Under the pieces are notes generated by a model. That model did not search any database, was not told where the DNA came from, and saw nothing but the letters and a program-made list of their open reading frames with translations. A stretch of DNA of 64,000 nucleotides, taken from positions 20,587 through 84,586 of the forward strand of contig JAHDQN010000040.1 in assembly GCA_018433775.1 (NCBI GenBank), read 5' to 3'. Positions 12,213-47,576 of the stretch are shown here, in pieces; positions within the stretch are counted from its first letter, which is position 1; the number at the start of each line of letters is the position of its first letter. The stretch comes from Deltaproteobacteria bacterium (GTDB lineage: Bacteria > Desulfobacterota > Desulfomonilia > UBA1062). The position numbers and the translations under genes were made by a program.

Positions 12213-13436
12213 TTAAAACAACTGCAGGCCGGGCATGGCCTGGGAAACCGCCTTGGCGTGTGATGTAACGACGCTTTCCAGCCATGCCGTCCCTTGATCG
12301 GAAACATCCGCGGGCAGACCCTGGATGGTTTCGATGTAACCGTCCCGTCCTGCCTGCATCGCCCTGTTCAGCCCGCCCAGGAACTCATCTTTCAGCGTTT
12401 CCGCGTCTGAACCAGGGATTGTATCCATCTCAAACATCTCTTTGATTTTATCGCTATTTTTTGTGAACCCGTCCCCGAATTGGGGGGCGCGCTTGGCCAT
12501 TGCCTCGAGCCGCTTCAGGCGTTCCTTGCGGGCGAGCGAGAGCTTGTCGAGGAGGCCTGCGTGGATGAGGGGGCCGAACTCGACCGCGTCCAGGAAGGGC
12601 TTGCGCACGTGGACATACCACTCGCGCAGGGCCGCGAGGTTCGCCAGATAGAGGATGTTGTTCTCCACCACGCGCTTGAGGTTCGGGTACAGGGCCGGCT
12701 GATACTCCCTTACTCCGCCCGGGTGCGGCTCGACCGTGATCAGACAGTTGTCGTCCGGGCAGTCCTGCCTGAGCACCGAGCCCGCGGCCACGACGTTGCC
12801 GAACCCCATGCGGACCGGCCCAACGATCCCCCCCTGGCCTCCGAGGAAGATGGGCGGCCGGTTCAGCATCACGCCCCTGGGCACGTCGCCGAGCAGCGAG
12901 GGGGTCGTCTTGTCGCCGTCCGGGGTGAAGTTGAAGTGGATGTACGAGCTCCCCACCTCGCTGTGGTCCTTGCGGCTGGTTCCCCCGGCCATGAGGCAGT
13001 CGCAGAAGTTGATCAGGCTGCCCAGGGTCACGAAGGGGAAGAGTATGGTCTGCTTGAGCCCCACGCAGTGGGCACCGCCCGCCTCCTCCTCCAGGATCGA
13101 ACCCTCGCGGACATGGGCGCCCAGGCCCATGTTGGATCTGTCGAGGAACACCGACTTGCTGAAATAGCCGCCCTTGAGCTCCACGTCGCGGCCGATCTGG
13201 CAGTCCTCGATCGTGACCGGGCCTTCGCGGCCGATCTGCGCGCCCGATGAGATGACGGTCTTCTCGCCGTAGATCCTGCACCCGGGATAGATCCTGACGC
13301 CCTGCGCGGATATCCGCCCGATGTCGACCTCTTCCCCGATATCGAGGGTCAGGGGGTTGGGGAGATCGATCCCCTTCTCGAGCAACTGCACGATCTTCTC
13401 ATGGCATCGCGGCGTTATGTCCATCGGCACCTCCAT
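12213..13436 (-). CDS. Left-handed beta-helix (hexapeptide-repeat) acetyltransferase. It resembles the GlmU C-terminal domain but has no nucleotidyltransferase domain and carries a helical C-terminal extension.
   Basis: Hexapeptide repeats run through the N-terminal roughly 280 aa. The start was trimmed to an internal ATG, either 13436 or 13424, with a GGAGG site. Confidence 0.55.
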   Translation of the reverse strand: MEVPMDITPRCHEKIVQLLEKGIDLPNPLTLDIGEEVDIGRISAQGVRIYPGCRIYGEKTVISSGAQIGREGPVTIEDCQIGRDVELKGGYFSKSVFLDRSNMGLGAHVREGSILEEEAGGAHCVGLKQTILFPFVTLGSLINFCDCLMAGGTSRKDHSEVGSSYIHFNFTPDGDKTTPSLLGDVPRGVMLNRPPIFLGGQGGIVGPVRMGFGNVVAAGSVLRQDCPDDNCLITVEPHPGGVREYQPALYPNLKRVVENNILYLANLAALREWYVHVRKPFLDAVEFGPLIHAGLLDKLSLARKERLKRLEAMAKRAPQFGDGFTKNSDKIKEMFEMDTIPGSDAETLKDEFLGGLNRAMQAGRDGYIETIQGLPADVSDQGTAWLESVVTSHAKAVSQAMPGLQLF

Positions 13437-13498
13437 ATACAGGCCAAATGAACGCCCTTTGTCAAAGAAAAAAATCGGTTCATCGTAATCTCCTTTAC

Positions 13499-22570: not shown

Positions 22571-24205
22571 TCACACCACATACCTGATCTGAAGACGCTC
22601 GGCCGCATGAAAGTCGTCGATGCCGAGCGCGTCGGACATGCCGATGGGAAGAGAGGTGGACCTTCCCATGGGCGCGAGGATCTTCTTGAGTTCGGCGTCA
22701 AAGCTCAAAAACACGTCGACCAGCCGCCCGGCCACGTCTTCGGGGTCGAGCCTGCGGTAGAGTCTGGGGTCCTGCGAGGTGATCCCCTTGGGGCATCGGC
22801 CGAGGTTGCAGATGTTGCACCGGTCCCCCTCCGAACCGACGCACCCGGCCGCCGCCTGCATGAGATATTTGCCCACCTGAACCCCGCTTGCACCGAGCAT
22901 GATGAGCGCAGCGGCATTTGCCGCCAGGTTGCCGTTCTTTCCCGCGCCTCCTCCGGCGAAGAGAGGGATCTCGTTCTGCTTGCCGATCTTCACCAGGTTC
23001 AGGTATGCGTCTCGCACATTGGCGGCGATGGGATGGCCCATGTGGTTCATGGACACGTTGTATGCCGCTCCGGTTCCCCCGTCCTCGCCGTCGATGGCCA
23101 AGGCCGCCGCGTACCGGTTGCGCGCGATGTTGTTGAGCACGGCGGTCGTGGTGCTGGTAGCCGATATCTTCGGGTACACCGGCACCCTGAAGCCCCATGC
23201 CATTGAGAGCGACTGGATCATCTTGGCCACGGACTCCTCTATGGAGTATTTGGTCTGGTGCGTGGGCGGCGAGGGCAGGCTCACCCCGGGCGGCACCCCC
23301 CTGATGGCGGCGATGAGCCCGTTCACCTTATGCCACATGAGCAGCCCGCCGTCTCCGGGCTTGGCGCCCTGGCCGTACTTGATCTCGATGGCGCAGGGGT
23401 CTTCCTTCATCTCTGGCAGGGCGTGGATGATCTCGTCCCAGCCGAAATACCCGCTCGCGATCTGGAGGATCACATACTTGAGAAACCGCGACCTGAGCAG
23501 CCGCGGCGGGCACCCGCCCTCGCCCGTGGATATCCTCACGGGCATGCCAAGCTCCTCGTTCAGATAGGCCACGCCCATCTGGAGCCCCTCCCACATGTTC
23601 GGGGAGAGTGCCCCGAACGACATGCCGCCCACGATCAGGGGATAGATCTCCCGCACCGGTGGCGCCCATCCGTCCTCTTTTGCCGAGTTGAGGATCTCCT
23701 CGGGAGGCAGGATGCGCCCCAGGAGGGTCCTGAGCTCGAACTCGTGCCTGCCGGCGTCCAGGGCCGGGTCGGTGAGCATGGAGATGCGGACGAACTTGAT
23801 GCGGTCGAGCACGCTTGCCGTGTCGTTCCGCCTGCCTCCCCGCCGCCTCGGCTCTCCGCCCTGGTTGGCATGAAACTTCAGCTTGTCGGTCTCCTCGCTC
23901 CTTACGGGGAATATGGCGGAGTTGGGGCAGACGAACGAGCACATGCCGCACCCCACGCAGGCATGTGCCGGGTCGGTTTTCTGGTCGATCCCGTAATAAA
24001 CGCGGTAGACGTTTCCCGGCCTCTCGCCCAGGCCCATGAGAACCGGCACCTCCCGCCTGCGGTGCACGCCGAGCTCGATTGCCCTCACCGGGCACACCGC
24101 AGTGCACTGTCCGCACAGGGTGCACCGGTCCCTGTCCCAGCAGACGCGCCAGGGCAGGTCCCTGGGGCTCAGTGCAGATGGGTGCAGGGTTCCCATTGGC
24201 TCCAT
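22571..24205 (-). CDS. Glutamate synthase FMN-binding (central) domain subunit with N-terminal 2x[4Fe-4S] ferredoxin
   Basis: Two CxxCxxCxxxCP motifs precede the GltB FMN-domain motifs (GEGG, KYGQGAKPG.GG). The start was trimmed to MEPMG, which has a GGAGG site. Confidence 0.8.
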   Translation of the reverse strand: MEPMGTLHPSALSPRDLPWRVCWDRDRCTLCGQCTAVCPVRAIELGVHRRREVPVLMGLGERPGNVYRVYYGIDQKTDPAHACVGCGMCSFVCPNSAIFPVRSEETDKLKFHANQGGEPRRRGGRRNDTASVLDRIKFVRISMLTDPALDAGRHEFELRTLLGRILPPEEILNSAKEDGWAPPVREIYPLIVGGMSFGALSPNMWEGLQMGVAYLNEELGMPVRISTGEGGCPPRLLRSRFLKYVILQIASGYFGWDEIIHALPEMKEDPCAIEIKYGQGAKPGDGGLLMWHKVNGLIAAIRGVPPGVSLPSPPTHQTKYSIEESVAKMIQSLSMAWGFRVPVYPKISATSTTTAVLNNIARNRYAAALAIDGEDGGTGAAYNVSMNHMGHPIAANVRDAYLNLVKIGKQNEIPLFAGGGAGKNGNLAANAAALIMLGASGVQVGKYLMQAAAGCVGSEGDRCNICNLGRCPKGITSQDPRLYRRLDPEDVAGRLVDVFLSFDAELKKILAPMGRSTSLPIGMSDALGIDDFHAAERLQIRYVV

Positions 24206-33085: not shown

Positions 33086-33101
33086 CTGGCACCCCCCTTG
33101 C
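33086..33101 (+). promoter_or_regulatory. Sigma-54 (-24/-12) promoter upstream of amtB
   Basis: The sequence is TGGCAC-ccccc-TTGCT, about 48 nt upstream of the amtB ATG. Confidence 0.6.
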
Positions 33102-33148
33102 TCACCCTGAACAAGCATAAGCCTTGTGATGAAAGGAGACCCATTTTT

Positions 33149-34354
33149 ATGATTTCTTCAGGTGATACCGCTTGGATGCTTGTCGCAACCGCACTGGTCA
33201 TGCTCATGACGCCGGGGCTCTCCCTGTTCTACGGAGGCCTCGTGCGCTCGAAGAACGTTCTGGGCACCATGATGCAGAGCTTCATCTGCCTGGGGCTGGT
33301 TTCCGTCCTCTGGATAGCTTATGGTTACAGCCTGGCCTTCTGCGGCGATGCGGGTGGAGTCATCGGCACCTTCCGGTGGGTCGGCCTTAAGGGGGTGGGG
33401 ATCGATGCCGGGCCTTATTCCGACACCATACCCCATCTGCTCTTCGCGGCCTTCCAGCTCATGTTCGCCATCATCACCCCGGCTCTGATCACCGGCGCGT
33501 TTGCCGAACGAATGAAATTCTCCGTGTTTCTCCTCTTTGTCATCCTCTGGAGCACGTTCGTGTATCTTCCGGTGTGCCACTGGGTCTGGGGCGGAGGCTG
33601 GCTGGGCAGGCTGGGAGCGCTCGACTTTGCCGGCGGCACGGTCATCCACGTCAACTCCGGCACGGCCGCACTGATGGCGGTCCTCGTCATCGGGAGGCGC
33701 AAAGGCTACAAAACCCAGCCCATCTATCCCCACAACCTTCCGCTCACCGTGCTCGGCGCATCGCTTCTGTGGTTCGGATGGTTCGGGTTCAATGCGGGCA
33801 GCGCCCTGGCAGCAAACGGAACCGCCACCCTGGCGTTCTTTACCACACAGGTCGCCACTGGCACCGCGGCGCTCTCGTGGATCCTGGCCGAAAAGATCAT
33901 CCGGGGAAAACCCACCACCTTGGGAGCGGTGTCCGGGGCGGTTGCCGGCCTGGTAGCCATCACCCCGGCGGCAGGGTTCGTGGGACCTGTCTCGGCGATC
34001 ATCATCGGCTTCGTGGCGGGAATCCTCTGCTATCTGGCGGTACTGCTCAAGGAGCGGATCGGGTACGACGACTCTCTCGACGTGGTGGCTGTCCACGGCA
34101 TCGGAGGTCTCTGGGGGGCGCTCGCCACCGGTCTGTTCGCTTCGGTGGGGGCCAGCGGCCTGTTCTTTGGGAATGCCCATCAGTTCTTCGTCCAGATAAT
34201 CGGTGCAGGCAGCGCGATCATCTACTCGGGCATTGTCACCACGATCATCCTCCTGGTGCTGAAATACACCGTGGGCCTGCGGGTGAGCGAGGAAGAGGAG
34301 ATCCAGGGCCTGGATGTGAGCCAGCACAACGAATCCGGATACGCTATCCGCTGA
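33149..34354 (+). CDS. amtB: Ammonium transporter
   Basis: It is an Amt/MEP family protein with 11-12 transmembrane helices. The start was trimmed to MISSGDTAW, which has a GGAG site. Confidence 0.9.
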   Translation: MISSGDTAWMLVATALVMLMTPGLSLFYGGLVRSKNVLGTMMQSFICLGLVSVLWIAYGYSLAFCGDAGGVIGTFRWVGLKGVGIDAGPYSDTIPHLLFAAFQLMFAIITPALITGAFAERMKFSVFLLFVILWSTFVYLPVCHWVWGGGWLGRLGALDFAGGTVIHVNSGTAALMAVLVIGRRKGYKTQPIYPHNLPLTVLGASLLWFGWFGFNAGSALAANGTATLAFFTTQVATGTAALSWILAEKIIRGKPTTLGAVSGAVAGLVAITPAAGFVGPVSAIIIGFVAGILCYLAVLLKERIGYDDSLDVVAVHGIGGLWGALATGLFASVGASGLFFGNAHQFFVQIIGAGSAIIYSGIVTTIILLVLKYTVGLRVSEEEEIQGLDVSQHNESGYAIR

Positions 34355-34432: not shown

Positions 34433-34789
<357 letters not shown>

Positions 34790-34816: not shown

Positions 34817-37300
34817 ATGGACGAACCGATGGACAGCGCTGTGAGCGGCCCTGGTCTCGCCCGGGAACTCTCCTCCCGGGCGGACCGGCATATCCGCACC
34901 CTCTTTGACTCGTGCCGACCCCAGGCAATGAGCAGATGGAGCATCGTCGCACTGGGAGGATACGGGAGGCAGGAGATCTGTCCGTTTTCCGATCTCGACA
35001 TCCTCTTTCTCCTGGAGAAAAAGCCTGCGGCACAGGAGATCGAGAACACCCTGAAGGAAACGCTCTACCCCCTGTGGGATGCCGGATTCAACGCCAGCTA
35101 CAGCGTCAGGACCATACACGAGGTTCTCCTTGACGCCCGGTCGGATTTTTTCTTCCATACCTCGCTTCTCGACGCGCGCCACATCTGCGGCTCGGAGACG
35201 GCATACCGGAAGTGCATGCGTGTCCTCGCCTCAGACCGGTCTCTCAACGACGGCAGACAGTTCATCTCCCGGCTGTCGTTCCATACCCGGAAAAGACACG
35301 AGAAGTTCGGTGACGCCTCCTATTTCCTCGAGCCGCACATCAAAGACGGCAGGGGAGGATTGAGAGATCACCAGAGTATCGTCTGGATAGAAAAGGTCCT
35401 GAAGAACGGCCGCAGCGGATTCGCCCCGCTCATCATTCCCGCCGACCGCAGGGAGCTCGACGCCGCAGCGGAATTCATGCTGAAATCCCGGTTCATGCTC
35501 CACAGGCTCGCCGAGGGAAAAACAGACCGGCTGCACCTGGAATACCAGGAGGACCTCGCCGGGATATTGGGATATGGCCCGCGTTCGGGGGAGAGCCCGG
35601 TGGAGGTTTTCCTGCGGGAGTTTCACCTCAGGGCCGTAACCGTACGCACCGTGCTCGACACCATGCTGCGTTTTCTGGACCGGCCCCGGGGCATCCGGTC
35701 TTTCCTGAACAGGAAGAAATGCGATGGACGGTTCATCCTGTTCTCCGGCCTGTTGTCGTTTTTCCGCCCCGAGGAATTGAAAGACGACCCGCTCATCGTC
35801 ATGTCCGCCTTTGTGAAAATGGCGCGCGAGGGCCTTTCCCTGACGCCGGAGGCACGATCGCAGATTAAGAGCCTGAGCGAATACGACACCCCTCTGAAGG
35901 AGAGCGTCGAGGGGTGTTCGGACCTGCTGCACATCCTCCGGAGCCCGGGTGCGGAAAACACCCTGACCTCGATGCTCGAAACCGGTGTTCTGGAGCAGCT
36001 CGTCCCGGAATTCAGCGCAATACGCGGCAGGACCATCTTCGACGTTTACCATACCCATACCGTGGACCTGCACAGCATCCGCACCGTATGCGAGCTGAAC
36101 GGGCTGAAGGACGATGAACAGGGTGTCCTTGCGCGTGTCACCGATCTCGAGGTCCTGTACTTCAGCGCCTTTTTCCACGACATTGGCAAGGGTTATTCCA
36201 AGCCCCATACCGACTCCGGCGCGGAAATCGTCCGCGCCGTGGCCCCGCGGTTCGGGTTCGATCATGACCGGACCGAGCTTGCAGCCTTTCTCGTGAAAAA
36301 CCACCTGATCATGCCGGAGCTCGCTTACGGGCGCGATCTTTCCGAGGAAAAGGTGGTCAGCTCTCTTGCCCGGCTGGTCGCGACCCCCCGGAGGCTCTCC
36401 ATGCTGTACCTCCTGAGCGTGGCGGACTCGCGTGCAACCGGGCCCGAAGCCTGGAACGAATGGAAAGCCGCACTCCTCCGCGAGCTCTATACCCGGACGA
36501 TCAACATCCTTGAGAAAGGGCTGTTCAAAGATCCCGAAAACGCCATGCGCCTGGAGGAGAAATGGCATCGGCTCATCCGGGAGGCAGAGGGTAACGAAAA
36601 CATGTCGGGCCGGCTCTGGGCATTACCCCAGGCGTACATCCTGGCCGGGAATCTGAAAGACATCAAGCGTCACCTGGCCGTAAGCTCAACTCTCTCCGGA
36701 AGGGACGACCTGATCGTGGAGACAGACCGCCGCGCGGGCCATGTTCTCGTCACCTTCATCACCCGCGATCGTCCCGGTCTGTTCTCGCTGCTCGCAGGCC
36801 TTCTCGCCATCAACCGCCTCGAGATCATCTCCGCAAAGATATTTACCTGGTACGACGGTACCGTGATAGACACATTCATGGTAATCACGCCATGGCCCGA
36901 CTACCGGGGATTCAACTCCATGCACCATCAGTTCAGGGACGTTCTCTCCGGGAAGATCAGGCTGGAAGACCGGATCATGCGGATCAAGCCTCTGCGCACC
37001 ACCGGTGACCCCGGAACGGTTCCCTCCGAAGATGCCGCATCCGTTGCTATCGACAACGACACCTCCGACTTCTTCACCATCATCCATGTGCAGGCATGCC
37101 GCAGGGCCGGGCTCATTCACGATCTTTCCCGCGCCCTCAGCTCTCTCGATCTAGACATTCACCGGGCTTTCCTCACGCGCACGTCCGATCTCGTGACCGG
37201 TGTTTTCTACGTGGTGGACAAGGATGGGGAAAAACTATGGGGGGAAAAGGAACAAAACGAGGTTCTCCGGGCTATTCGCGAGGTGATCGGTACCGGTTGA
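34817..37300 (+). CDS. glnD: Bifunctional [protein-PII] uridylyltransferase/uridylyl-removing enzyme
   Basis: It has a nucleotidyltransferase domain (GGYGR.E..P.SDLD), an HD domain and two ACT domains. Confidence 0.9.
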   Translation: MDEPMDSAVSGPGLARELSSRADRHIRTLFDSCRPQAMSRWSIVALGGYGRQEICPFSDLDILFLLEKKPAAQEIENTLKETLYPLWDAGFNASYSVRTIHEVLLDARSDFFFHTSLLDARHICGSETAYRKCMRVLASDRSLNDGRQFISRLSFHTRKRHEKFGDASYFLEPHIKDGRGGLRDHQSIVWIEKVLKNGRSGFAPLIIPADRRELDAAAEFMLKSRFMLHRLAEGKTDRLHLEYQEDLAGILGYGPRSGESPVEVFLREFHLRAVTVRTVLDTMLRFLDRPRGIRSFLNRKKCDGRFILFSGLLSFFRPEELKDDPLIVMSAFVKMAREGLSLTPEARSQIKSLSEYDTPLKESVEGCSDLLHILRSPGAENTLTSMLETGVLEQLVPEFSAIRGRTIFDVYHTHTVDLHSIRTVCELNGLKDDEQGVLARVTDLEVLYFSAFFHDIGKGYSKPHTDSGAEIVRAVAPRFGFDHDRTELAAFLVKNHLIMPELAYGRDLSEEKVVSSLARLVATPRRLSMLYLLSVADSRATGPEAWNEWKAALLRELYTRTINILEKGLFKDPENAMRLEEKWHRLIREAEGNENMSGRLWALPQAYILAGNLKDIKRHLAVSSTLSGRDDLIVETDRRAGHVLVTFITRDRPGLFSLLAGLLAINRLEIISAKIFTWYDGTVIDTFMVITPWPDYRGFNSMHHQFRDVLSGKIRLEDRIMRIKPLRTTGDPGTVPSEDAASVAIDNDTSDFFTIIHVQACRRAGLIHDLSRALSSLDLDIHRAFLTRTSDLVTGVFYVVDKDGEKLWGEKEQNEVLRAIREVIGTG

Positions 37301-38429: not shown

Positions 38430-40079
38430 TCACTCGCCCGTTGTCCTGAACTTCTTCACGTCGCTTGAGAGTACCGAGGCATCCGCCCTGAGACTGTCAA
38501 GGGTGCAGGCAAGCTCTTCAACGGTGGTGGCGTTGTTCTGTGTGAATGAGTCTATCTGGCTGACGGCTATGGAGAGCTCCTTCATGTTCTGGCTCTGCTC
38601 CATGCTTGCCGTGGTAATCTCTTCCATCATCTTGAAAAAGAAATCGAAGCGCGACATGAGCTCTTCGAGGGACTCGGCCGTCTTTTTCATGAATTCGTCA
38701 CCGGTCTTGATACGGCCCACGGTTCCGTCGATGAGATTCCGGATCTCCCTGGCCGCATCGCCCGAGCGCTGGGCAAGGGCACGGACCTCACCTGCCACCA
38801 CCGCGAATCCTTTCCCGTGCTCGCCTGCCCGGGCGGCCTCCACCGATGCATTGAGGGCCAGGAGGTTTGTCTGGAAGGCCACTTCGTTGACCGTCACCAC
38901 GATATCCCCGATCTTCCGGGAATCCTGGGAAATTTCCCGGGTGGCATCCATCAGCCGGGAGAAGACCTCCCTGTTCTTGTCGATGAGCCCGGTGATGATC
39001 TGGGAGGTTTCCCTCCCCCCCTTCACCACCTGGGTGTTGTGCTGAATCGATCCGTTCATTTCTTCTATCGATGCGGATATCTCCTCAATGGACGCCGACT
39101 GTTCCTGAGTCGCCTGTGACAGGCCCTGTGAGCCCGAGCTCACCTGCTCGATGGAGCCATGGAGTTGTAAAGAGATGTGCCTCACATGCCGTATGATCTC
39201 TTCCAGGTCGTTCATGAACTCGTTGAACCAGTGGGCAAGCTGGCCCACCTCATCGATGCCCCTCACCTCCAGCCGTCTTGTGAGATCGCCCTTGCCTCCC
39301 GCCATGTCCTTGAGCATGCGGGACATGCCGCCAACGGAGGCGGTGATCCCCTTCATGAGAAGATATCCGTTGAGGAAGGTCATGATGACGGTCTGGAGGA
39401 CTATGAGAGGAAAGCTCATCTGGATAGTGGAAAGCGGCATGCCGGCGAATATGGAGAGATAGATGGTGCCGATCAGATCGCCGATTGGAGGGATTGCGAT
39501 GAGAAGAATGATGGCGAAGAGCTTCTGGTTGAGGCTGATTCTCAGATAACCCGTGCCATCTGCGAGGATTCCCTTCCTGCTGCACTCCCGGTAAAAGGGG
39601 GCGAGGCTGTTCTCGGCCACCAGGTAATAGAGCGCCATTCCTGACAATCCGGTCATACCCAGGATATTGCCCCCGAATATGAGCAAATCGAACGGCAGGT
39701 AATCTTTCATGTAAAGGGGCATCACCACGGACAGCCATGCAATCCCGGCCCACCTGATGAATATCAGGACAGCCTCTGCAAAGGGGAGGATCGAAGCACA
39801 GCGCAGGGCATACCTCGCCTCCCGCTCGTCAAGTCCTCCGTCCTCCATCACCCTGACGGCAGGACTCACCAGATGATATTTGACCGCCGCTCCGATAGCC
39901 ACCGAGATCACGGTCTGCAGGAATACCAGGGTGATGCCTTCGAGAAAATGTTCCCTGAACCCTTGAGATATGGGAAGAAAAAACATGATGACCGTCGGCA
40001 CCAGCACGAGATACGTGATTCCCTCCTGGAGCAGGAACGGGCGCAGGGAAAAGACCTTTGTGTACTCCTTCATGAGCAA
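38430..40079 (-). CDS. Methyl-accepting chemotaxis protein with a polytopic membrane-embedded N-terminal region
   Basis: HAMP and MCP signalling domains are present. The N-terminus has at least six hydrophobic helices. Confidence 0.8.
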   Translation of the reverse strand: MLMKEYTKVFSLRPFLLQEGITYLVLVPTVIMFFLPISQGFREHFLEGITLVFLQTVISVAIGAAVKYHLVSPAVRVMEDGGLDEREARYALRCASILPFAEAVLIFIRWAGIAWLSVVMPLYMKDYLPFDLLIFGGNILGMTGLSGMALYYLVAENSLAPFYRECSRKGILADGTGYLRISLNQKLFAIILLIAIPPIGDLIGTIYLSIFAGMPLSTIQMSFPLIVLQTVIMTFLNGYLLMKGITASVGGMSRMLKDMAGGKGDLTRRLEVRGIDEVGQLAHWFNEFMNDLEEIIRHVRHISLQLHGSIEQVSSGSQGLSQATQEQSASIEEISASIEEMNGSIQHNTQVVKGGRETSQIITGLIDKNREVFSRLMDATREISQDSRKIGDIVVTVNEVAFQTNLLALNASVEAARAGEHGKGFAVVAGEVRALAQRSGDAAREIRNLIDGTVGRIKTGDEFMKKTAESLEELMSRFDFFFKMMEEITTASMEQSQNMKELSIAVSQIDSFTQNNATTVEELACTLDSLRADASVLSSDVKKFRTTGE

Positions 40080-40766
40080 CCTTCCTTTCCCGATAAAAGG
40101 CTTTTATGTCATATTGTATGTTTATATTATTCATTCATTCTTCCTGGGTATATCGGCGACACAGTGCTGTAAATTTAATCGCATACCTGCCGGCATTGCA
40201 AAGGTTTACGACCGGTAACTTTTAGGGAGTAAGAAAAGAAGGAACCCTGCCCTGGAAGACAGGAAAAGAAACCGGATGTTCGGAAAAGCCGACTCCTTAA
40301 AAACCACCAAACCGAAAGATTCACAAGAATGAACACCATCCGCCCTCAACGGGAAATCAGTGCACGGGGAGGTTCGTGTATGTATGATTTCTTATAGAGA
40401 TATGAATTCTGTATCTCGCGATCTCAGGTTGAGATAGCCAGTTGATATATGCAATGTAGGCTAAGCCTTGTTATCCTCACACGATATATGAACTCTTCAA
40501 AAGACCTGTTTAATGGGAAAGGCTCTCTGCGGTGCCAGGAGAAATGATTGGGACTAATAGTGTAGTTGTAAAATCACCGACGATCCAAGTTTACCTATCC
40601 TCTGTTCGAGCTATACTGATCATTCACTTTTTTTAGGCAAGGGGCGTAATAATTATATTGATGATGGCTACCGATACTATCGGCAGATGACGCTTCGGCG
40701 TGTCACGATTCATTCCAGGCGTTAATTGCCTGGGTAAAGGCAACGTCCAGAGGAGGAGTAGCGATC

Positions 40767-42077
40767 ATGAGGCACCTTCGTATATCCATCATGGGTCTTG
40801 CAGTGTGCGTAGCGGTCATGTTCACGTGCGGATGCAGCGCGGTGCGGTATACCACCACCATGAAGCCTTCCTGCGACAAGGACCTGCAGTACGGCCCGGT
40901 CCGCCTCAACGTGTCGAGCTTCACCTACGAGATGCCTGGTGTTCAGCCCCAGCCGCCGGACATCGACCGGAAGGCGAAAGAGCTCTTCCCGAGCGTGTTC
41001 ACGGACGACCTCGCAGGACTGCCTGTCCACATCGACATCAAGAAAACGTACGACGACACGTCCATGGGCGTCACGAGGCTCCTCTCGCTTACCTTCACGC
41101 TTGGGGTGATCCTGATACCGGGCACCCAGGAGTACGGGTTCATTGTCCGTACGAGCGTGCTGGACTCCCTGGGCGAGCCCCTGGTCGAGAAAGAGGGGAA
41201 GTTCGGAATCGACACGGTGTCATGGGGCAGCTACTGGCCCTGGGGCCTCCTGCCGGTGATCGGGCCCTCCGACCTTCCGAGGGCATCCCTTTTCAGCGGG
41301 AGCAACTTCGCGTCCGGCACGATAGAGTCTCAGACCAAGATCAACGACCACGCCGCCGCGTGCATCGCCGAGATCGCGGCCCGGTCGCTCCAGTCGGCAG
41401 ATCAGGCCAGGCTCGAAGCAGCCTACCGTGAACGGCAGTCCCGCGTGCAGGAGGTCACCATCGACGGCCGGAAGTGCACAAGTTTCCTCACCATGAACCC
41501 GGTGTCCAGGCCGAAGGTTGGCAGCGTCTTCAAGGCGCTCGTGTACGATGGCGAACCGAAGCAGTGGACAAAACCGCTGCATACCGCGGTCGTGGCCCGA
41601 TACGACGAGTCCGGCCGCTGGCGGCCCGTGAAAACCTACCTGCGCCATGCCCGCACGCTCACCTCGGTGAGCGCCCTGATCGAGAACAATATCCCGGTCA
41701 AAGTGGCGGTGCGCACGCCCGAAGCGCCTCCCCTGGAGGACTTCATCGACACCCCGGACCTCTCGGGTGCCGACCGTGCCGAGGTCTTGCGCTGGAGCAA
41801 CTCCATGCTGCTCGATGCCAAGAACCGGTCCCTGGAGAGGCTGCTGCAAGAGGAGAGCAGGGAAACGCTGCTCGCGCTCGCGACCCGTATCGAGCGCTCC
41901 ATCCTGGACCTGAACGAGCAGGCGGAGCGAGCCAAGGACAAGGCCCAGGCCATGGTGGAAAAGGGAGAGGGCGACCCTGCCCCCGAGAGAGAGCTGTCGG
42001 TCCTGTGCCGCCAGCGCATCGAGGTGCTCAAGCCCGTGCTCGCAGCCGTCAAGGTTGCTGCAGCGGGAAAGCAGTAA
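40767..42077 (+). CDS. Lipoprotein of unknown function, paralog A of a tandem pair
   Basis: It has a signal peptide and lipobox (FTCGCS). The C-terminus is conserved with the next gene (PPLEDFID.PDLSG.DRA..LRWSN). Confidence 0.6.
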   Translation: MRHLRISIMGLAVCVAVMFTCGCSAVRYTTTMKPSCDKDLQYGPVRLNVSSFTYEMPGVQPQPPDIDRKAKELFPSVFTDDLAGLPVHIDIKKTYDDTSMGVTRLLSLTFTLGVILIPGTQEYGFIVRTSVLDSLGEPLVEKEGKFGIDTVSWGSYWPWGLLPVIGPSDLPRASLFSGSNFASGTIESQTKINDHAAACIAEIAARSLQSADQARLEAAYRERQSRVQEVTIDGRKCTSFLTMNPVSRPKVGSVFKALVYDGEPKQWTKPLHTAVVARYDESGRWRPVKTYLRHARTLTSVSALIENNIPVKVAVRTPEAPPLEDFIDTPDLSGADRAEVLRWSNSMLLDAKNRSLERLLQEESRETLLALATRIERSILDLNEQAERAKDKAQAMVEKGEGDPAPERELSVLCRQRIEVLKPVLAAVKVAAAGKQ

Positions 42078-42176
42078 CAGAGGATCAGGGGGAGCCGGCG
42101 CTTGGGCGCACCAGGCTCAGGTATCAAAAAAGGGATGCCGACATGAACAGTATTCAATGAACAGGGAGGAGCGGCA

Positions 42177-43511
42177 ATGAGAGCATACCGGGCGATGTTG
42201 ATATCGGGCACGATGATCCTGCTGGCCATGCTTCTGACCGGCTGCGCATCGATGCGCATAGCGAGCGCCCTGAAACCCTCGGGCGAAACGGGCCTCGCCC
42301 TCGGCAAGGCGCGCTTCAGCCTCATCGATTACACCGGCACGTACGACAAGGACAATCCGGCCGCGAAGTCCTGGATGGACACGATCACCCGCGATTTCCT
42401 GGCACAGCGGGCCAAAGCCCTTTATCCGGAGATCTTTACGGACGAATGGACGGCGTTGCCGGTCATGGTCAAGGCCGAAAGCACGCTCCACCACAACACA
42501 ATGATACCCGCATTCCTGACAATCCTGACCGCAGGTGTAGTCCCCGTTCCCCAGAAGGCGTCCTTGAACCTGACCGTGTCCTCGGATGCGCGGGACGCGC
42601 TGGGCGAAAGCCTGATCGCCAGGGACAGGAAATTCGAGGTCGAGCAGGTCGCGTGGGTGAGCCTCGTCGGTCCGCTGGGCTGCTTCCCGGTCCCAGGACA
42701 GGCCGACCTGGAGCGGGACAGCGTCTTTCTCTTCATCCCGCTGAGCAAGGATGCCTATTCCAGGACCAAGCTCCCGACGTATGTCGCGGACTGCATCGTC
42801 GAATCCGTGGTCAGGGACCTCCGCGAGGCGGACCCCGGCCTCGTCGACTCCGCCTACAAGGCCCGCGCATCGCGCCTCCAGGAGGTCGCCGTCGACGGCC
42901 GCGCCTTCTGGGTCTTCCTCGCGCCGTCGCTCTCGCAGGAAACCGGGAAACCGGTCGCCTTCACGGCCTTGTTCTACGGTGAGCAGCCGAGGCGCGGGAT
43001 GGTGCCCTATGAACAGGTTGTCGTGGCACGCCGCGACGGCAGCGGCACCTGGGTCCCGGAGACCGGATACCTGCGCCGGGCGAAGAGCCTGACCGCCGTC
43101 GGCGTCCTCATGGACAAGGGCATCCCGGCGAAGGTTGCGGTGCGGGTTGTTAACGAGCCTCCCCTGGAGGACTTCATCGATCTCCCTGACCTCTCCGGCC
43201 CGGATCGAGCCGACAGATTGCGCTGGAGCAACGGCGTTCTGCTCGAAGCCAAGAACAGGTCGCTCACGAAGACGCTGAAGGAAAAAACCGGCGACGAGCT
43301 GCTGACCCTGGTGACCCGCATCGAGAAGGCAATCCTCGATCTGAGCGGTCTGGCCGAACGCGCCAAGGACAACGCCCAGTCGATCGTGGAAAAGGGCCAG
43401 GGCGACCCGGGACCGGACCGTGAGCTCTCCGTCCTGTGCCGCCAGCGGATCGAGATCTTCAAGCCCATCCTGGCCGCAGCCAAGCAGGAAGCGGTGCTTA
43501 CAAGACCATAG
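42177..43511 (+). CDS. Lipoprotein of unknown function, paralog B
   Basis: The lipobox is LLTGCAS. It shares about 40-50% identity with the upstream paralog along its whole length. Confidence 0.6.
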   Translation: MRAYRAMLISGTMILLAMLLTGCASMRIASALKPSGETGLALGKARFSLIDYTGTYDKDNPAAKSWMDTITRDFLAQRAKALYPEIFTDEWTALPVMVKAESTLHHNTMIPAFLTILTAGVVPVPQKASLNLTVSSDARDALGESLIARDRKFEVEQVAWVSLVGPLGCFPVPGQADLERDSVFLFIPLSKDAYSRTKLPTYVADCIVESVVRDLREADPGLVDSAYKARASRLQEVAVDGRAFWVFLAPSLSQETGKPVAFTALFYGEQPRRGMVPYEQVVVARRDGSGTWVPETGYLRRAKSLTAVGVLMDKGIPAKVAVRVVNEPPLEDFIDLPDLSGPDRADRLRWSNGVLLEAKNRSLTKTLKEKTGDELLTLVTRIEKAILDLSGLAERAKDNAQSIVEKGQGDPGPDRELSVLCRQRIEIFKPILAAAKQEAVLTRP

Positions 43512-43632: not shown

Positions 43633-46422
43633 TCACAGCGCCCCGGCAATGCGCTTAAGGGCCGCCGGGACATCCTCGTCCAGGATGTGGAGGCGCAGCA
43701 CCCTCCTTCCCTTTTCCTTCAGCGCGTTCCAGTCGCCCAGGGCCTGGGCGCTCTCCAATGTTCCGAACGAGATGGACGATTGCCATGACCCGGGCTCGTC
43801 AGGAATCGCGAGATCATCCGAAACCTGCCGGGTGATCTGGACGAAGAGCCCCCTGCCCTCGTCGCCCTTGTGGAGCTGGCCCGTGGAGTGGAGGTAACGG
43901 GGCCCGTACCCGCTCATGACCGCGATCCTGCGGGTGTCCCTGATCTTCGTGCGGAACCCGTCGAGGGCTTCGCCGATCTCATCCGTTGGCGGCAGATACG
44001 CCTGTATCGCTACGTATGAGGCATCGCCAGCATCTTTCAGAAATGATGCCAGGGCATCGGGCAGGGTTCCTGCCCGCACGTCGCCGTACACGCTGATGTG
44101 CTGGTCCTTCAGCGCCGGGGCGTGCCCGGGGAGCGAACCGGTCTTCCGGAACAGCTCCACCGCCTCTGTCGCTCGTTTCTTCGCGGCCTCCACGTCGGGC
44201 TGATCAAAGGGGTTGACGCCGAGAATGTGCCCTGCCACGGCAGTGGCTGTCTCCCAGAGGTAGAACTGCCCGCCGATATCGCACAGATCGTGGAGCCCGA
44301 TGCGCACCACGGGGTGCCCGGCCTTTTCGAGCCCGTCCAGGATCTTGTCGTGGGTGTGATCGCCTTCAAGCCGCAGGCTCACGAAGAGCCGGTCGTCCCG
44401 GTACTGCCCGGGCGATCCCGGGCGTTCGCGCACGATGGGGACGATGCCCTTGCCCTGCTTGCCCGTGCTCTCGGCAATGAGCTGCTCCACCCAGTCTCCG
44501 AACGAGGCGATCCCGGGCGACAGGAAAAAGGTCGCCTTGTTCCTGCCCGCCAGGGCCGCCTCACCGAGGATCGCGCCGAGGACGCCCCCGGAGTTTGCGC
44601 CCTTCGGGGTGCAGGTTCCGGCCTGGCAGTTCTCGGTCATGACCAGGGCCCTGTCCAGGAGCGACTTGACGTCCACTCCCATGAGCGCCGCAGGCACGAG
44701 CCCGAAATGGGAGAGGGCCGAGTATCTGCCGCCCAGATCGGGTTCGTTGAGGAAGATGTTCCTGAAATTGTACTTCCGGGCCGTTTCCATCAGGGGGGAG
44801 CCCGGATCCGTGATCGCGACGAAGTGCTCCCCGGCATTGTCCGCGCCCAGGGCGTCGGCGGTCACGGTGAAGAAGTATCTGAACAGCGAGAGCGTCTCCA
44901 CCGTGGTGCCCGATTTGGTCGATACGATGAACAGGGTCGTGGCCGGGTCGACCTTCTGGAATTCGGCGGCAAGAAAGTCGGGGTCGGTGCTGTCGATGAC
45001 GTTAAGGTCGAGATATCCCTCGCGCACGCCGAAGATCGACCGCATCACGTCGGGGGCCAGCGATGACCCGCCCATGCCCAGAAGGATCGCGCGGGTGTAT
45101 CCCTTCGATGCCATGTCCCGCGCGAACTGCTCCATCCCGTCCGCGTGATCGAGAATGTCTGCTGGCAGGGAGAGCCAGGCCAGCCGGTTGGTGATTTCCC
45201 CGGGGCTCTCGCTCCACACCGTGTGGTCGTGCGCGTAGATCCGGGACATGACCCCGGCCTTGTCCATCTCCTGAAGGCGGGTATCCACCCTGGCCTGAAG
45301 GTCTCCCAGGGCGGCTGTCATCTGATGCCACCCGGAGATGATGGCCCGCCTCTTGGCCGCGATGCTGTCCATGAGCGAACGGAACGACCCCGCGAACAGA
45401 TCAACGCCGTCTTTCTGCAGCTTGGAGGTCACGGCTTCGAGGTCGATGCCCGCCTGTGCGAGCCGCTCGATCTGCGCGAGGGCCTCCTCAATTCCCGTGC
45501 CCAGCGTGCTCTCCGTCTTTCCGTGGTCGAGAAAGGCCTGGAGCGTGGCTGGTGGAAGGGTGTTGACCGTGTGGGGGCCGATGAGCTCGTCCACGTAGAG
45601 CGTGTCCGGATATTTCGGGTTCTTGGTCCCGGTGCTCGCCCACAGCAGCCTCTGGGGACGCGCTCCCTGCTGCTCGAGCGCCTGCCACCGATCACCGGAG
45701 AAGATCCCGCCGAAAAGCCCGTAGGCAACCTTGGCGTTGGCCACCGCGATCTTCCCCGTGAGGTCGCTCAGGGAATGTCTTTCGAGCTCGGGATCGAGCG
45801 AGGTGTCAACCCTGCTCACGAAAAACGAGGCCACCGAGGCCACGCGGGCGAGGTCACCGCCCGAGGCAAGATATTTTTCCAGGCCGCGCAGGTAGGCGTG
45901 AGCCACCTCCTCGTAGCGCCCCACGGAAAAGAGCAGGGTCACGTTGACGTTGATGCCTTCGGCGATCAGGGTTTCGATCGCAGGCACCCCTTCTGCGGTG
46001 GCAGGGACCTTGATCATGATATTCGGACGCCCCAGGGCCGCAAAGAGCCGCCTGGCTTCGTGGACGGTCTGTTCGGTGTCGTAGGCCAGCACCGGGCTCA
46101 CCTCGATGCTCACATACCCGTCCAGACCCTTTGTGTCGTCATAGACCTTCCGGAACAGGTCCGCTGTCCGGGCGATGTCGTCGAGCGCGAGGTGCTCGTA
46201 GATCTCCTCGATCGACAGGCCGTCCCGCACCAGGGCCGTGAGATAGTCATCGTAATCCGAGCTGCCCGCTATGGCCTTTTCGAAGATCGTGGGGTTTGAC
46301 GTGACTCCGCGGATGCCCTGATCGATGAGTGACTGAAGCTCGCCCGAGGTGATCAGCGACCTGCGGATGTAGTCGAACCATATCGCCTGCCCTATGTGGG
46401 CCAATGTATGGAGTTTCGCCAT
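43633..46422 (-). CDS. Bifunctional transaldolase / glucose-6-phosphate isomerase
   Basis: The transaldolase N-domain is fused to a PGI SIS-type C-domain. Confidence 0.85.
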   Translation of the reverse strand: MAKLHTLAHIGQAIWFDYIRRSLITSGELQSLIDQGIRGVTSNPTIFEKAIAGSSDYDDYLTALVRDGLSIEEIYEHLALDDIARTADLFRKVYDDTKGLDGYVSIEVSPVLAYDTEQTVHEARRLFAALGRPNIMIKVPATAEGVPAIETLIAEGINVNVTLLFSVGRYEEVAHAYLRGLEKYLASGGDLARVASVASFFVSRVDTSLDPELERHSLSDLTGKIAVANAKVAYGLFGGIFSGDRWQALEQQGARPQRLLWASTGTKNPKYPDTLYVDELIGPHTVNTLPPATLQAFLDHGKTESTLGTGIEEALAQIERLAQAGIDLEAVTSKLQKDGVDLFAGSFRSLMDSIAAKRRAIISGWHQMTAALGDLQARVDTRLQEMDKAGVMSRIYAHDHTVWSESPGEITNRLAWLSLPADILDHADGMEQFARDMASKGYTRAILLGMGGSSLAPDVMRSIFGVREGYLDLNVIDSTDPDFLAAEFQKVDPATTLFIVSTKSGTTVETLSLFRYFFTVTADALGADNAGEHFVAITDPGSPLMETARKYNFRNIFLNEPDLGGRYSALSHFGLVPAALMGVDVKSLLDRALVMTENCQAGTCTPKGANSGGVLGAILGEAALAGRNKATFFLSPGIASFGDWVEQLIAESTGKQGKGIVPIVRERPGSPGQYRDDRLFVSLRLEGDHTHDKILDGLEKAGHPVVRIGLHDLCDIGGQFYLWETATAVAGHILGVNPFDQPDVEAAKKRATEAVELFRKTGSLPGHAPALKDQHISVYGDVRAGTLPDALASFLKDAGDASYVAIQAYLPPTDEIGEALDGFRTKIRDTRRIAVMSGYGPRYLHSTGQLHKGDEGRGLFVQITRQVSDDLAIPDEPGSWQSSISFGTLESAQALGDWNALKEKGRRVLRLHILDEDVPAALKRIAGAL

Positions 46423-46571: not shown

Positions 46572-47576
46572 TCAAGGCAGGGTGTCCATGATATCCAGCC
46601 CGAAATGGGCTGCCCCTATGAGACCGGCCTTGGGATTGAGAATGACATGGACCGGAAAGGCGGAGATGACTCCCGCGAGCCTGCCCTTGCGGCGATATGC
46701 CTCCATGAACGGGCTCTGCCCGATGATGGACACGAGTCTGGGAGGTATGCCTCCCCCCACGTACACCCCACCGGAGGCGAGGATCTTGAGCGCCAGGTTG
46801 CCGGTCTCCGCCCCGAGAATGGAGAGGAAGACGCGCACCGTCTCCTGACAGATTTCGCAGGTCGTATCCCGATCCAGGGCTGCGTTCACGATGACGGCGG
46901 TGGCATCGGGCTCCCGGACCAGGCTTTCCGCGAGCCAGGCAGGCTCTTCATGCCTGCCCTGGTCCTTCAGGAACGAGTAGATGTTGGGAATGCCGCTGCC
47001 CGAGCATATCCGCTCGTAGCTGACATGCTCGAAGCGGTCCATGAGGTATTTCAGCAGCTCGAGCTCGATGGCGTCCGCGGGGCCGAACTCGGTGTGCCCG
47101 CCCTCGGATGCGTGGGCGAGATAGCGGTCGCCGTCCCAGGTGAGGTATGCCTCGCCCAGGCCGGTCCCGGCCGCGATGACCGCGCGCGGACCCGTGGGGA
47201 TCGGCCTGCCCGCGTTCAGGGTGAGCAGGTCCTCGCCCCTGAGCAGGGGAATGCTGTAGGCAACAGCCTGGAGATCGTTGATCAGGCGCACCCTGTCTAT
47301 ATTCAGCTCGGTCTGGAGATACCCGGCATCGATCTCCCACGGCAGGTTCGTGATCTGAGCGCGTTTTCCCACCACGGGGCCCGCCACGCCGAAGACCGCG
47401 TGATCGACCCCCGTGATATGATGCCGGGTCGAGAACTCCTTGATTATGGCCCTCAGCGAGCTATAAGACCCGCTGGGATAAATGCCCTCGTACAGGGGCC
47501 TTTCGGGACCGCTCTGCGGGGTGTACAGAGCGAGTATGGTCTTGGTCCCTCCGATATCACCTGCAATCAATTTCAT
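46572..47576 (-). CDS. glk: Glucokinase
   Basis: It belongs to the Glk family (MKLIAGDIGGTKT). Confidence 0.8.
   Translation of the reverse strand: MKLIAGDIGGTKTILALYTPQSGPERPLYEGIYPSGSYSSLRAIIKEFSTRHHITGVDHAVFGVAGPVVGKRAQITNLPWEIDAGYLQTELNIDRVRLINDLQAVAYSIPLLRGEDLLTLNAGRPIPTGPRAVIAAGTGLGEAYLTWDGDRYLAHASEGGHTEFGPADAIELELLKYLMDRFEHVSYERICSGSGIPNIYSFLKDQGRHEEPAWLAESLVREPDATAVIVNAALDRDTTCEICQETVRVFLSILGAETGNLALKILASGGVYVGGGIPPRLVSIIGQSPFMEAYRRKGRLAGVISAFPVHVILNPKAGLIGAAHFGLDIMDTLP

Follow-up and report, generated by a model that had tools for sequence, protein, structure and literature searches.

Within a 64,000-nucleotide (nt) stretch of DNA from a Deltaproteobacteria bacterium of the Desulfomonilia (GenBank assembly GCA_018433775.1, contig JAHDQN010000040.1, positions 20,587 to 84,586; hereafter the window), two tandem open reading frames (ORFs) encode paralogous lipoproteins of a family that carries no name in current databases: ORF A (40767..42077, plus strand, 436 amino acids (aa)) and ORF B (42177..43511, plus strand, 444 aa). 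These lipoproteins are a new three-domain variant inside a known structural class, that of LptE, TraT and CsgG, and the conserved part of the long intergenic region in front of them is predicted to be a sigma-28 (FliA)-type promoter and not an RNA element. On this basis we propose, at an even balance of confidence and doubt, that A and B would be outer-membrane-anchored, hetero-oligomeric envelope lipoproteins of the late flagellar/chemotaxis regulon.

A small and unannotated family of tandem lipoproteins

BLASTP aligns A with B over 439 columns at 42% identity (E 2e-113), and both genes lie exactly where the first-pass annotation, made from the sequence alone, had placed two tandem paralogs of about 440 aa. 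The same annotation had described a conserved C-terminal half. This part is indeed the best conserved, the C-terminal domain being 65% identical between the two proteins, but identity is found in all three domains (30% in the N domain and 43% in the middle one) and the homology is therefore full-length. A hydrophobic signal sequence ends at Cys23 in both proteins (codon 40833-40835 in A), in agreement with the lipobox Cys recognised earlier; B has a canonical lipobox (LLTGC), whereas that of A is atypical (FTCGC), and at least 90% of the 57 family members compared have a Cys at the aligned position. With a GC content at third codon positions of 0.84, A and B are native to the genome.

The suspicion that no characterised family would account for these proteins was borne out by every collection searched: Pfam returned sub-threshold noise only, with nothing relevant even at E <= 1, NCBIfam and PADLOC gave no match, and the sequences of the Protein Data Bank were matched neither by a single sequence nor by a 57-sequence family profile. 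Likewise, the periplasmic binding domain that had been envisaged as a possible well-known match was not found in A or B, either as a solute-binding-protein family of Pfam or as a periplasmic-binding-protein fold in structure comparison. Anti-phage defence was considered as a role and rejected on the empty PADLOC scan. Relatives were sought among 5.8 billion protein clusters, which yielded 76 full-length ones (counted as clusters), every one unnamed or labelled 'hypothetical'. Their hosts are anaerobic Deltaproteobacteria represented by metagenome-assembled genomes (Syntrophaceae, Desulfobacteraceae, Desulfuromonadales, Desulfomonilia) and by one isolate, Desulfuromonas sp. AOP6, the sole outliers being one Lentisphaerota-labelled bin and one distant Thermodesulfovibrionales match (29% identity). 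Enrichment cultures also carry members, among them the methanogenic toluene-degrading culture from which contig TOLCLC_10002106 derives. An exhaustive profile search over 1.84 billion representatives retrieved 450 proteins at E <= 1e-3 and just 58 at E <= 1e-30. These results define a genuine but small family without annotation, in which A and B are conserved paralogs.

Hidden Markov models of the individual domains, applied to 223 retrieved proteins, found the N-middle-C arrangement of A and B in 100 of them, the N domain alone in 46, the C domain alone in 38 and a middle-C arrangement in 27. Most are lipoproteins in which the Cys is also the first residue of the N domain and opens the motif C-x-S-x-R-[YF]-x-[ST]-T-L-K. 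Distant relatives from the representative search (P0146, P0162, P0163, P0131 and P0194) carry the modules in fusions, of the N domain to a caspase (Peptidase_C14) and of the C-terminal helical bundle to DUF2846 or to a tetratricopeptide repeat (TPR) domain, and these fusions, together with the stand-alone N, middle and C modules, amount to a modular architecture.

Domain structure and fold class

AlphaFold models of A and B (predicted local distance difference test scores of 88-91) resolve three modules. The N domain comes directly behind the lipid anchor, a beta domain forms the middle, and a three-helix bundle of high conservation makes up the C-terminal part. In the plus-strand coordinates of ORF B, the signal peptide and lipobox span 42177-42245, the N domain 42243-42872, the middle beta domain 42873-43166 and the C-terminal bundle 43167-43508. 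The modelled core of the N domain consists of two helices against an antiparallel beta sheet, and two helices on a five-stranded sheet have been described as the LptE fold in the structural study of TraT (PMC12658005). The predicted structure of this domain is LptE/TraT/CsgG/HpaA/FlgT-like. Its list of fold neighbours (similarity scores in brackets) is headed by CsgG (8.0) and the DUF330 protein XCC0632 (7.7), followed by a 352-residue chain of the Vibrio LPHT ring that is probably FlgT (7.6), Cj1090c and several LptE proteins (7.6-6.0), CT253 (7.2) and HpaA / HP0492 (7.2-6.6); PqiC (6.8), PelC (5.9), and the N-terminal domain of TolB and LpoB (5.6) stand lower. Foldseek was concordant, with HpaA at a probability of 0.98 and then TraT, CsgG and LptE. 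Identity to the fold neighbours is 5-14%, and the assignment is therefore one of fold class and not of family membership.

The residue that follows the Cys is always one of G, A, S and T, and Asp does not occur there, which by the E. coli sorting rule suggests that A and B are targeted to, and anchored in, the outer membrane. The N domain also bears two conserved hydrophobic Pro/Gly-rich loops, AxLTGFTLGxIPFPG and PLGxLPVPG, which are the least confident parts of its model; one may speculate that they might touch the membrane in the way of the inserting elements of TraT and CsgG.

Paralog sets and partner genes

Family members occur as tandem sets of 2-4 genes in nearly every locus. A rough neighbour-joining tree separates four old clades, A-D, ORF A of the window belonging to clade A and ORF B to clade B; locus L001 has A+B+C+D, L011 and L014 have A+D, and no locus has two genes of one clade. 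One gene per clade per locus is the pattern expected of hetero-oligomer subunits or of sub-functionalised partners. Immediately downstream of the lipoprotein genes, at least nine loci encode a TPR protein of ~525 aa and a Pfam-less protein of ~380 aa, both with signal-peptide-like starts. In L001 the last lipoprotein gene and the TPR gene share 4 nt, and in Desulfuromonadales and one other locus the two partner genes are on the opposite strand. Desulfuromonas sp. AOP6 has two of the lipoprotein paralogs and both partner genes. Named-family (NCBIfam) matches of the TPR partner are all far below cut-off. The TPR fusion of the C domain seen in distant relatives echoes this gene beside the family. 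A tblastn search of the window found neither partner gene, and in this genome both may lie elsewhere. Beyond the cassette there is no synteny, each genome having its own set of unrelated metabolic neighbours.

A divergent subgroup (L012:8504-15153, L019, L020 and L023) has another setting, with a coiled-coil low-complexity protein encoded upstream and a FecR-domain protein downstream. The possibility that its coiled-coil protein (F5) is a homologue of the 380-aa partner (F2) was not borne out, comparison of the two giving no detectable relationship (E 0.07). AAA-ATPase-like genes are found nearby in L012 and L020.

Sigma-28-type promoters in the intergenic region

The DNA preceding ORF A had been singled out as an unusually long, AT-richer leader, and it is both: its GC content is 0.42-0.45, against about 0.60-0.65 in the flanks, and of all gaps that separate confident genes of the window it is one of the three or four longest. 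What that description overlooked is the orientation of the upstream gene, which encodes a methyl-accepting chemotaxis protein (MCP; 38430..40073) on the minus strand, so that the 'leader' is a divergent intergenic/promoter region. The list of ORFs starts the MCP gene at a TTG (40079); the ATG at 40073 is likelier, being preceded by an AGGAAGG Shine-Dalgarno sequence, and with this start the true gap is ~693 nt.

When related loci were aligned over the 220-270 nt that precede their first family gene, a shared two-box motif came to light, made up of an AT-rich box (TAATAAT / TAATAAA / CATAAT), 16 nt and then GCCGAT[AG], the latter exact in 11 related loci. The motif corresponds to the sigma-28/FliA consensus, which has a -10 box of GCCGATAA and a -35 box of TCTAAAG (PMC12784957). 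In the window the motif is present twice, one copy facing each side. Toward A-B, the predicted promoter (40650..40677, plus strand) reads TAAT-TATATTGATGATGGCT-ACCGATAC, with a 16-nt spacer and the CCGATA core 96 nt before the ATG; toward the MCP gene, that at 40150..40177 (minus strand) reads TAAA-TTTACAGCACTGTGTC-GCCGATAT, again with a 16-nt spacer and ~70 nt before the start codon. Compared with the consensus -10 box, GCCGATAT agrees at 7/8 positions and ACCGATAC at 6/8, the MCP site as a whole, TAAA-N16-GCCGATA(T), being a near-perfect match.

A scan of both strands of the 64 kb with the pattern TAA[AT]-N15-17-[GA]CCGAT[AG] gave 2 matches, against a mean of 0.36 in shuffled controls. Both are inside the leader, at 40650-40676 on the plus strand (TAAT-N16-ACCGATA) and at 40177-40151 on the minus strand. 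A position weight matrix trained on 11 other loci only, with the window excluded, ranked the A-B site first (20.6 bits) and the MCP site second (18.8 bits) window-wide, the third match (13.5 bits) being the antisense of the A-B site itself. The A-B-type site recurs in at least 12 related loci, which represent at least four lineages because the 5' untranslated regions (UTRs) of the groups align only weakly. The distance from its CCGATA core to the ATG is 96-106 nt in L001, L004, L005, L011, L014, L018, L022 and the window and, by inspection, in L007 and L010, but 34-38 nt in L008 and L015. Leave-one-out scans placed the top match (20-38 bits, runner-up <=12.5) just 5' of the first family gene in 10 loci, and the further metagenome loci that include an upstream region, mostly additions from redundant lineages, all carry the motif, among them two more members of the L008/L015 type.

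Chemoreceptor genes are classical sigma-28 targets, and the MCP site therefore serves as an internal control that this organism uses the motif. No sigma-54 promoter was found in the leader within 2 mismatches of TGGCAC-N5-TTGCW, nor one by eye in Desulfuromonas AOP6, and a generic sigma-70 scan was uninformative (2 weak sites vs 1.1 expected). In Desulfovibrio vulgaris, FliA is required for flagellation (PMC3944678).

Proposed role and alternative explanations

In the proposed explanation, A and B are paralogs that diverged long ago within a still uncharacterised family of secreted envelope proteins held by a lipid anchor. Their N domain, of the LptE/TraT/CsgG type, would rest on the inner face of the outer membrane, the very conserved three-helix bundle would most likely dock a conserved partner, and the paralog types encoded side by side would work as a hetero-oligomer, which in many genomes would act together with the neighbouring secreted TPR and 380-aa proteins. 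In the window genome and its closer relatives, transcription of A-B would run in vivo from the sigma-28 (FliA)-type promoter and the lipoproteins would be co-produced with late flagellar and chemotaxis proteins, serving the motility apparatus or the envelope of the motile state, for instance in the form of a ring or scaffold at the outer membrane. An outer-membrane-associated envelope scaffold produced in motile cells is the likeliest role. A direct flagellar role, as an outer ring, disk or anchor, is attractive because the fold often forms rings, because polar motors recruit lipoproteins and TPR proteins and because the probable FlgT chain is a fold neighbour. That the lipoproteins and the TPR and 380-aa proteins would jointly build a structure not seen before, whether an outer-membrane-associated motor ring or scaffold or else a sheath or an anchor, specific to Deltaproteobacteria of the Syntrophia/Desulfomonilia type, is nonetheless a bolder proposal that we consider unlikely.

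Several observations speak against a flagellar role or qualify the promoter assignment. By inspection of gene content there are no flagellar genes in the window, and none stand beside the related loci, whose flanks, covered over up to 20 kb, are all metabolic. The A-B promoter deviates from the consensus at one of four positions in its -35 box (TAAT) and at two of eight in its -10 box, every site of this lineage has a spacer of 16 nt where the textbook value is 15, and Desulfuromonadales, among other members, lack the motif. The outer rings of known flagella (the Vibrio H-ring of FlgT/FlgP/FlgO and the FlgP disk of Campylobacter/Helicobacter) share neither sequence homology nor flagellar linkage with the family, and the fold similarity to them is no better than to non-flagellar lipoproteins. 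Distant relatives, moreover, fuse the N domain to a caspase. Part of this evidence, namely the lack of nearby flagellar genes, the incomplete distribution of the motif and the caspase fusions, is what one would expect if A and B belonged to a general envelope complex independent of the flagellum, concerned with the handling or export of polysaccharide, lipopolysaccharide or lipid or with stabilisation of the outer membrane, in which the sigma-28-type promoter would merely couple expression to the planktonic/motile state in one clade. Most fold neighbours (LptE, PelC, PqiC and CsgG among them) are transport- or assembly-associated outer-membrane lipoproteins, and TPR partners are common in the outer-membrane machineries of exopolysaccharides and pili, although the NCBIfam matches of the TPR partner here are below cut-off. 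Nevertheless, no conserved transporter, glycosyltransferase, beta-barrel or MCE gene adjoins the family, and the conserved promoter and its pairing with the MCP promoter would be left to explain; we hold such a complex to be a tentative but real possibility. It is, in turn, very unlikely that the lipoproteins are periplasmic ligand-binding partners presenting a signal to the adjacent chemoreceptor. That their genes diverge from an MCP gene with the same type of promoter, and that this MCP has no recognisable periplasmic sensor domain, would suit such a function, but the MCP adjacency is confined to the window and occurs in none of the related loci, and the lipoproteins do not have the fold of a periplasmic binding protein.

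The promoter itself could be read in another way, with the AT-rich box as an ordinary sigma-70 -10 element and GCCGATA as a conserved operator or early-transcript element. The box (TATAAT in L001, CATAAT in L014 and L022, TAATAAT in the window) does fit TATAAT at 4-6/6 positions in most loci, which favours this reading; as a -35 box it is AT-rich yet variable, notably in the L008/L015 group. However, no conserved TTGACA-like -35 box was seen by inspection 17 nt upstream, the information content peaks in GCCGATA and not in the AT box, the same boxes at the same spacing precede the MCP gene (with TTAAAT as the upstream box), and the exact match to the sigma-28 -10 would stay unexplained, all of which makes a sigma-70 promoter quite improbable. 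The least probable explanation in our judgement, with hardly any credence left to it, is the one offered by the first-pass annotation, that the long leader contains a riboswitch or small RNA controlling the lipoprotein genes. The gap is long and AT-rich, the proximal UTR has a similar length (~90 nt) across three lineages, and most loci, the window excepted, have a GGA/GGG-rich stretch ~55 nt 5' of the Shine-Dalgarno sequence. On the other side, the Rfam scan that had been recommended (Rfam 15 in permissive E-value mode, positions 39900-40950) gave as its sole match a spurious one to a mammalian long non-coding RNA model (E 0.17, 24 bits vs a gathering score of 60), and sliding 120-nt folds of both strands had z-scores of -2.4 to +2.5, nothing significant. 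The palindrome reported earlier does exist, as CCAGGC-GTTAATT-GCCTGG at 40715-40733, but its 6-bp stem is at chance level (~1 expected in 690 nt by our own estimate) and is not kept in orthologous 5' UTRs. For the proximal UTR (~90 nt, 10 loci) the consensus structure from RNAalifold has an energy of -5.5 kcal/mol and a covariation term of +0.33, which is unfavourable; the sequence of these ~90 nt is moderately conserved, chiefly around the Shine-Dalgarno sequence, with no supported structure. The distal 600 nt are unconserved. In the closest relative, L004, identity is 85% at the nucleotide level over both genes, but the alignment begins ~21 nt before the ATG of A and stops at the B stop, the flanking genes differ and the distal leader has no counterpart; its only other copy lies on a contig of 100% identity that presumably comes from the same strain. 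Long AT-rich upstream DNA is a feature of some relatives only, several having just ~200 nt.

Comparison with known systems and significance

The sigma-28-regulated envelope lipoproteins that we propose share their lipobox Cys and the fold of their N domain with the LptE-like-fold lipoproteins LptE, TraT, CsgG, PelC, PqiC/DUF330 and HpaA. They differ from them in having no Pfam or NCBIfam profile match and an identity of only 5-14%, in adding a beta domain and a conserved three-helix bundle, in lacking the gene context of LptD, curli, Pel, MCE or conjugation systems, and in occurring as tandem paralogs with a TPR partner and a sigma-28-type promoter. The Pfam families concerned are presumably PF04390 for LptE, PF03783 for CsgG, PF05211 for HpaA and PF03886 for DUF330/PqiC. 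Among these proteins HpaA of Helicobacter pylori is a lipoprotein reported on the flagellar sheath and the outer membrane; unlike A and B it is single-domain, restricted to Helicobacter, described as an adhesin and devoid of the beta and helical domains, and it has no sequence similarity to them. As to class III (sigma-28/FliA-dependent) promoters, the likeness lies in the -10 boxes, in the chemoreceptor target and, more doubtfully, in the TAAA/TAAT of the -35 region, whereas the A-B lineage departs from them by its 16-nt spacer and variable AT-rich -35 box.

Flagellar motors gain lineage-specific periplasmic and outer-membrane rings, and in the FlgP disk of Campylobacter/Helicobacter the TPR proteins PflA/PflB act as scaffolds. 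To our knowledge almost nothing is known of such rings in the motors of syntrophic anaerobes. A conserved cassette of ring-prone lipoproteins and a TPR protein, headed by a late-flagellar promoter, makes a reasonable candidate for a motor addition of this kind and, if the ring reading were true, would represent a lineage-specific accessory analogous to the Vibrio H/T rings or to the Campylobacter disk/cage, though unrelated to them in sequence. Should the flagellar link be wrong, the family would still offer a new, modular lipoprotein architecture. Its absence from Pfam and NCBIfam makes it invisible in the annotation of syntrophic, sulfate- or metal-reducing Deltaproteobacteria; its placement in the LptE/TraT/CsgG fold class and in a sigma-28-type regulon opens its function to concrete tests and makes it a testable candidate for a lineage-specific component of motility or of the envelope in poorly studied syntrophic Deltaproteobacteria. 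The case also illustrates how a divergent promoter region, rather than an RNA element, can account for a long AT-rich 'leader'.

Other features of the intergenic region and of the window

The predicted 5' UTR of A-B spans 40685..40766 (plus strand) from an inferred transcription start site; it includes the palindrome and, at 40751-40759, the Shine-Dalgarno sequence GAGGAGGAG. The GGA/GGG stretch of related loci (AAAGGATT-like) occupies columns 42-50 of the 5' UTR alignment in L001, L004, L005, L022, L011, L014 and L018, 5' of a GGAGG Shine-Dalgarno, and this layout resembles that of flagellin leaders bound by CsrA at two sites. Between the two divergent promoters lies an AT-rich spacer of ~470 nt (40178..40649) to which no feature was assigned. 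It has no ORF above 54 aa, the small ORFs being unsupported, and repeats within the leader are limited to short two-copy matches, none convincing; a 14-nt direct repeat in the spacer, GAGATATGAATTCT at 40397 and GATATATGAACTCT at 40483, is probably due to chance.

The MCP encoded divergently from A-B has HAMP and MCPsignal domains and a multi-transmembrane N-terminus, in which ~230 aa form several hydrophobic segments; it may be a membrane-embedded or cytoplasm-sensing receptor. On the other side of the lipoprotein genes, convergent with ORF B, a single ORF of 929 aa (43633-46422, minus strand) fuses a transaldolase (residues 14-354) to a phosphoglucose isomerase (438-656) and is followed by a glucokinase-like gene (46572-47576). 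By inspection, the window is a housekeeping region (pyrG, carB, glnA, gltB, pdxST, amtB-glnB-glnD, hisF, tal-pgi, glk, htpG). Two segments of more than 1 kb each, ~12286-13498 and ~22702-24168, are without a confident gene, and the long ORFs in them have an atypical GC content by codon position. The ammonium-transporter gene, whose start was over-extended to 33005 in the list of ORFs and is placed at the ATG at 33150, is followed by genes for PII (34451-34789) and GlnD (34817-37300); an exact sigma-54 consensus, TGGCACCCCCCTTGCT, stands at 33087-33102 (plus strand), ~48 nt 5' of the transporter start, and the amtB-PII-GlnD cluster looks like a textbook NtrC/sigma-54 nitrogen operon.

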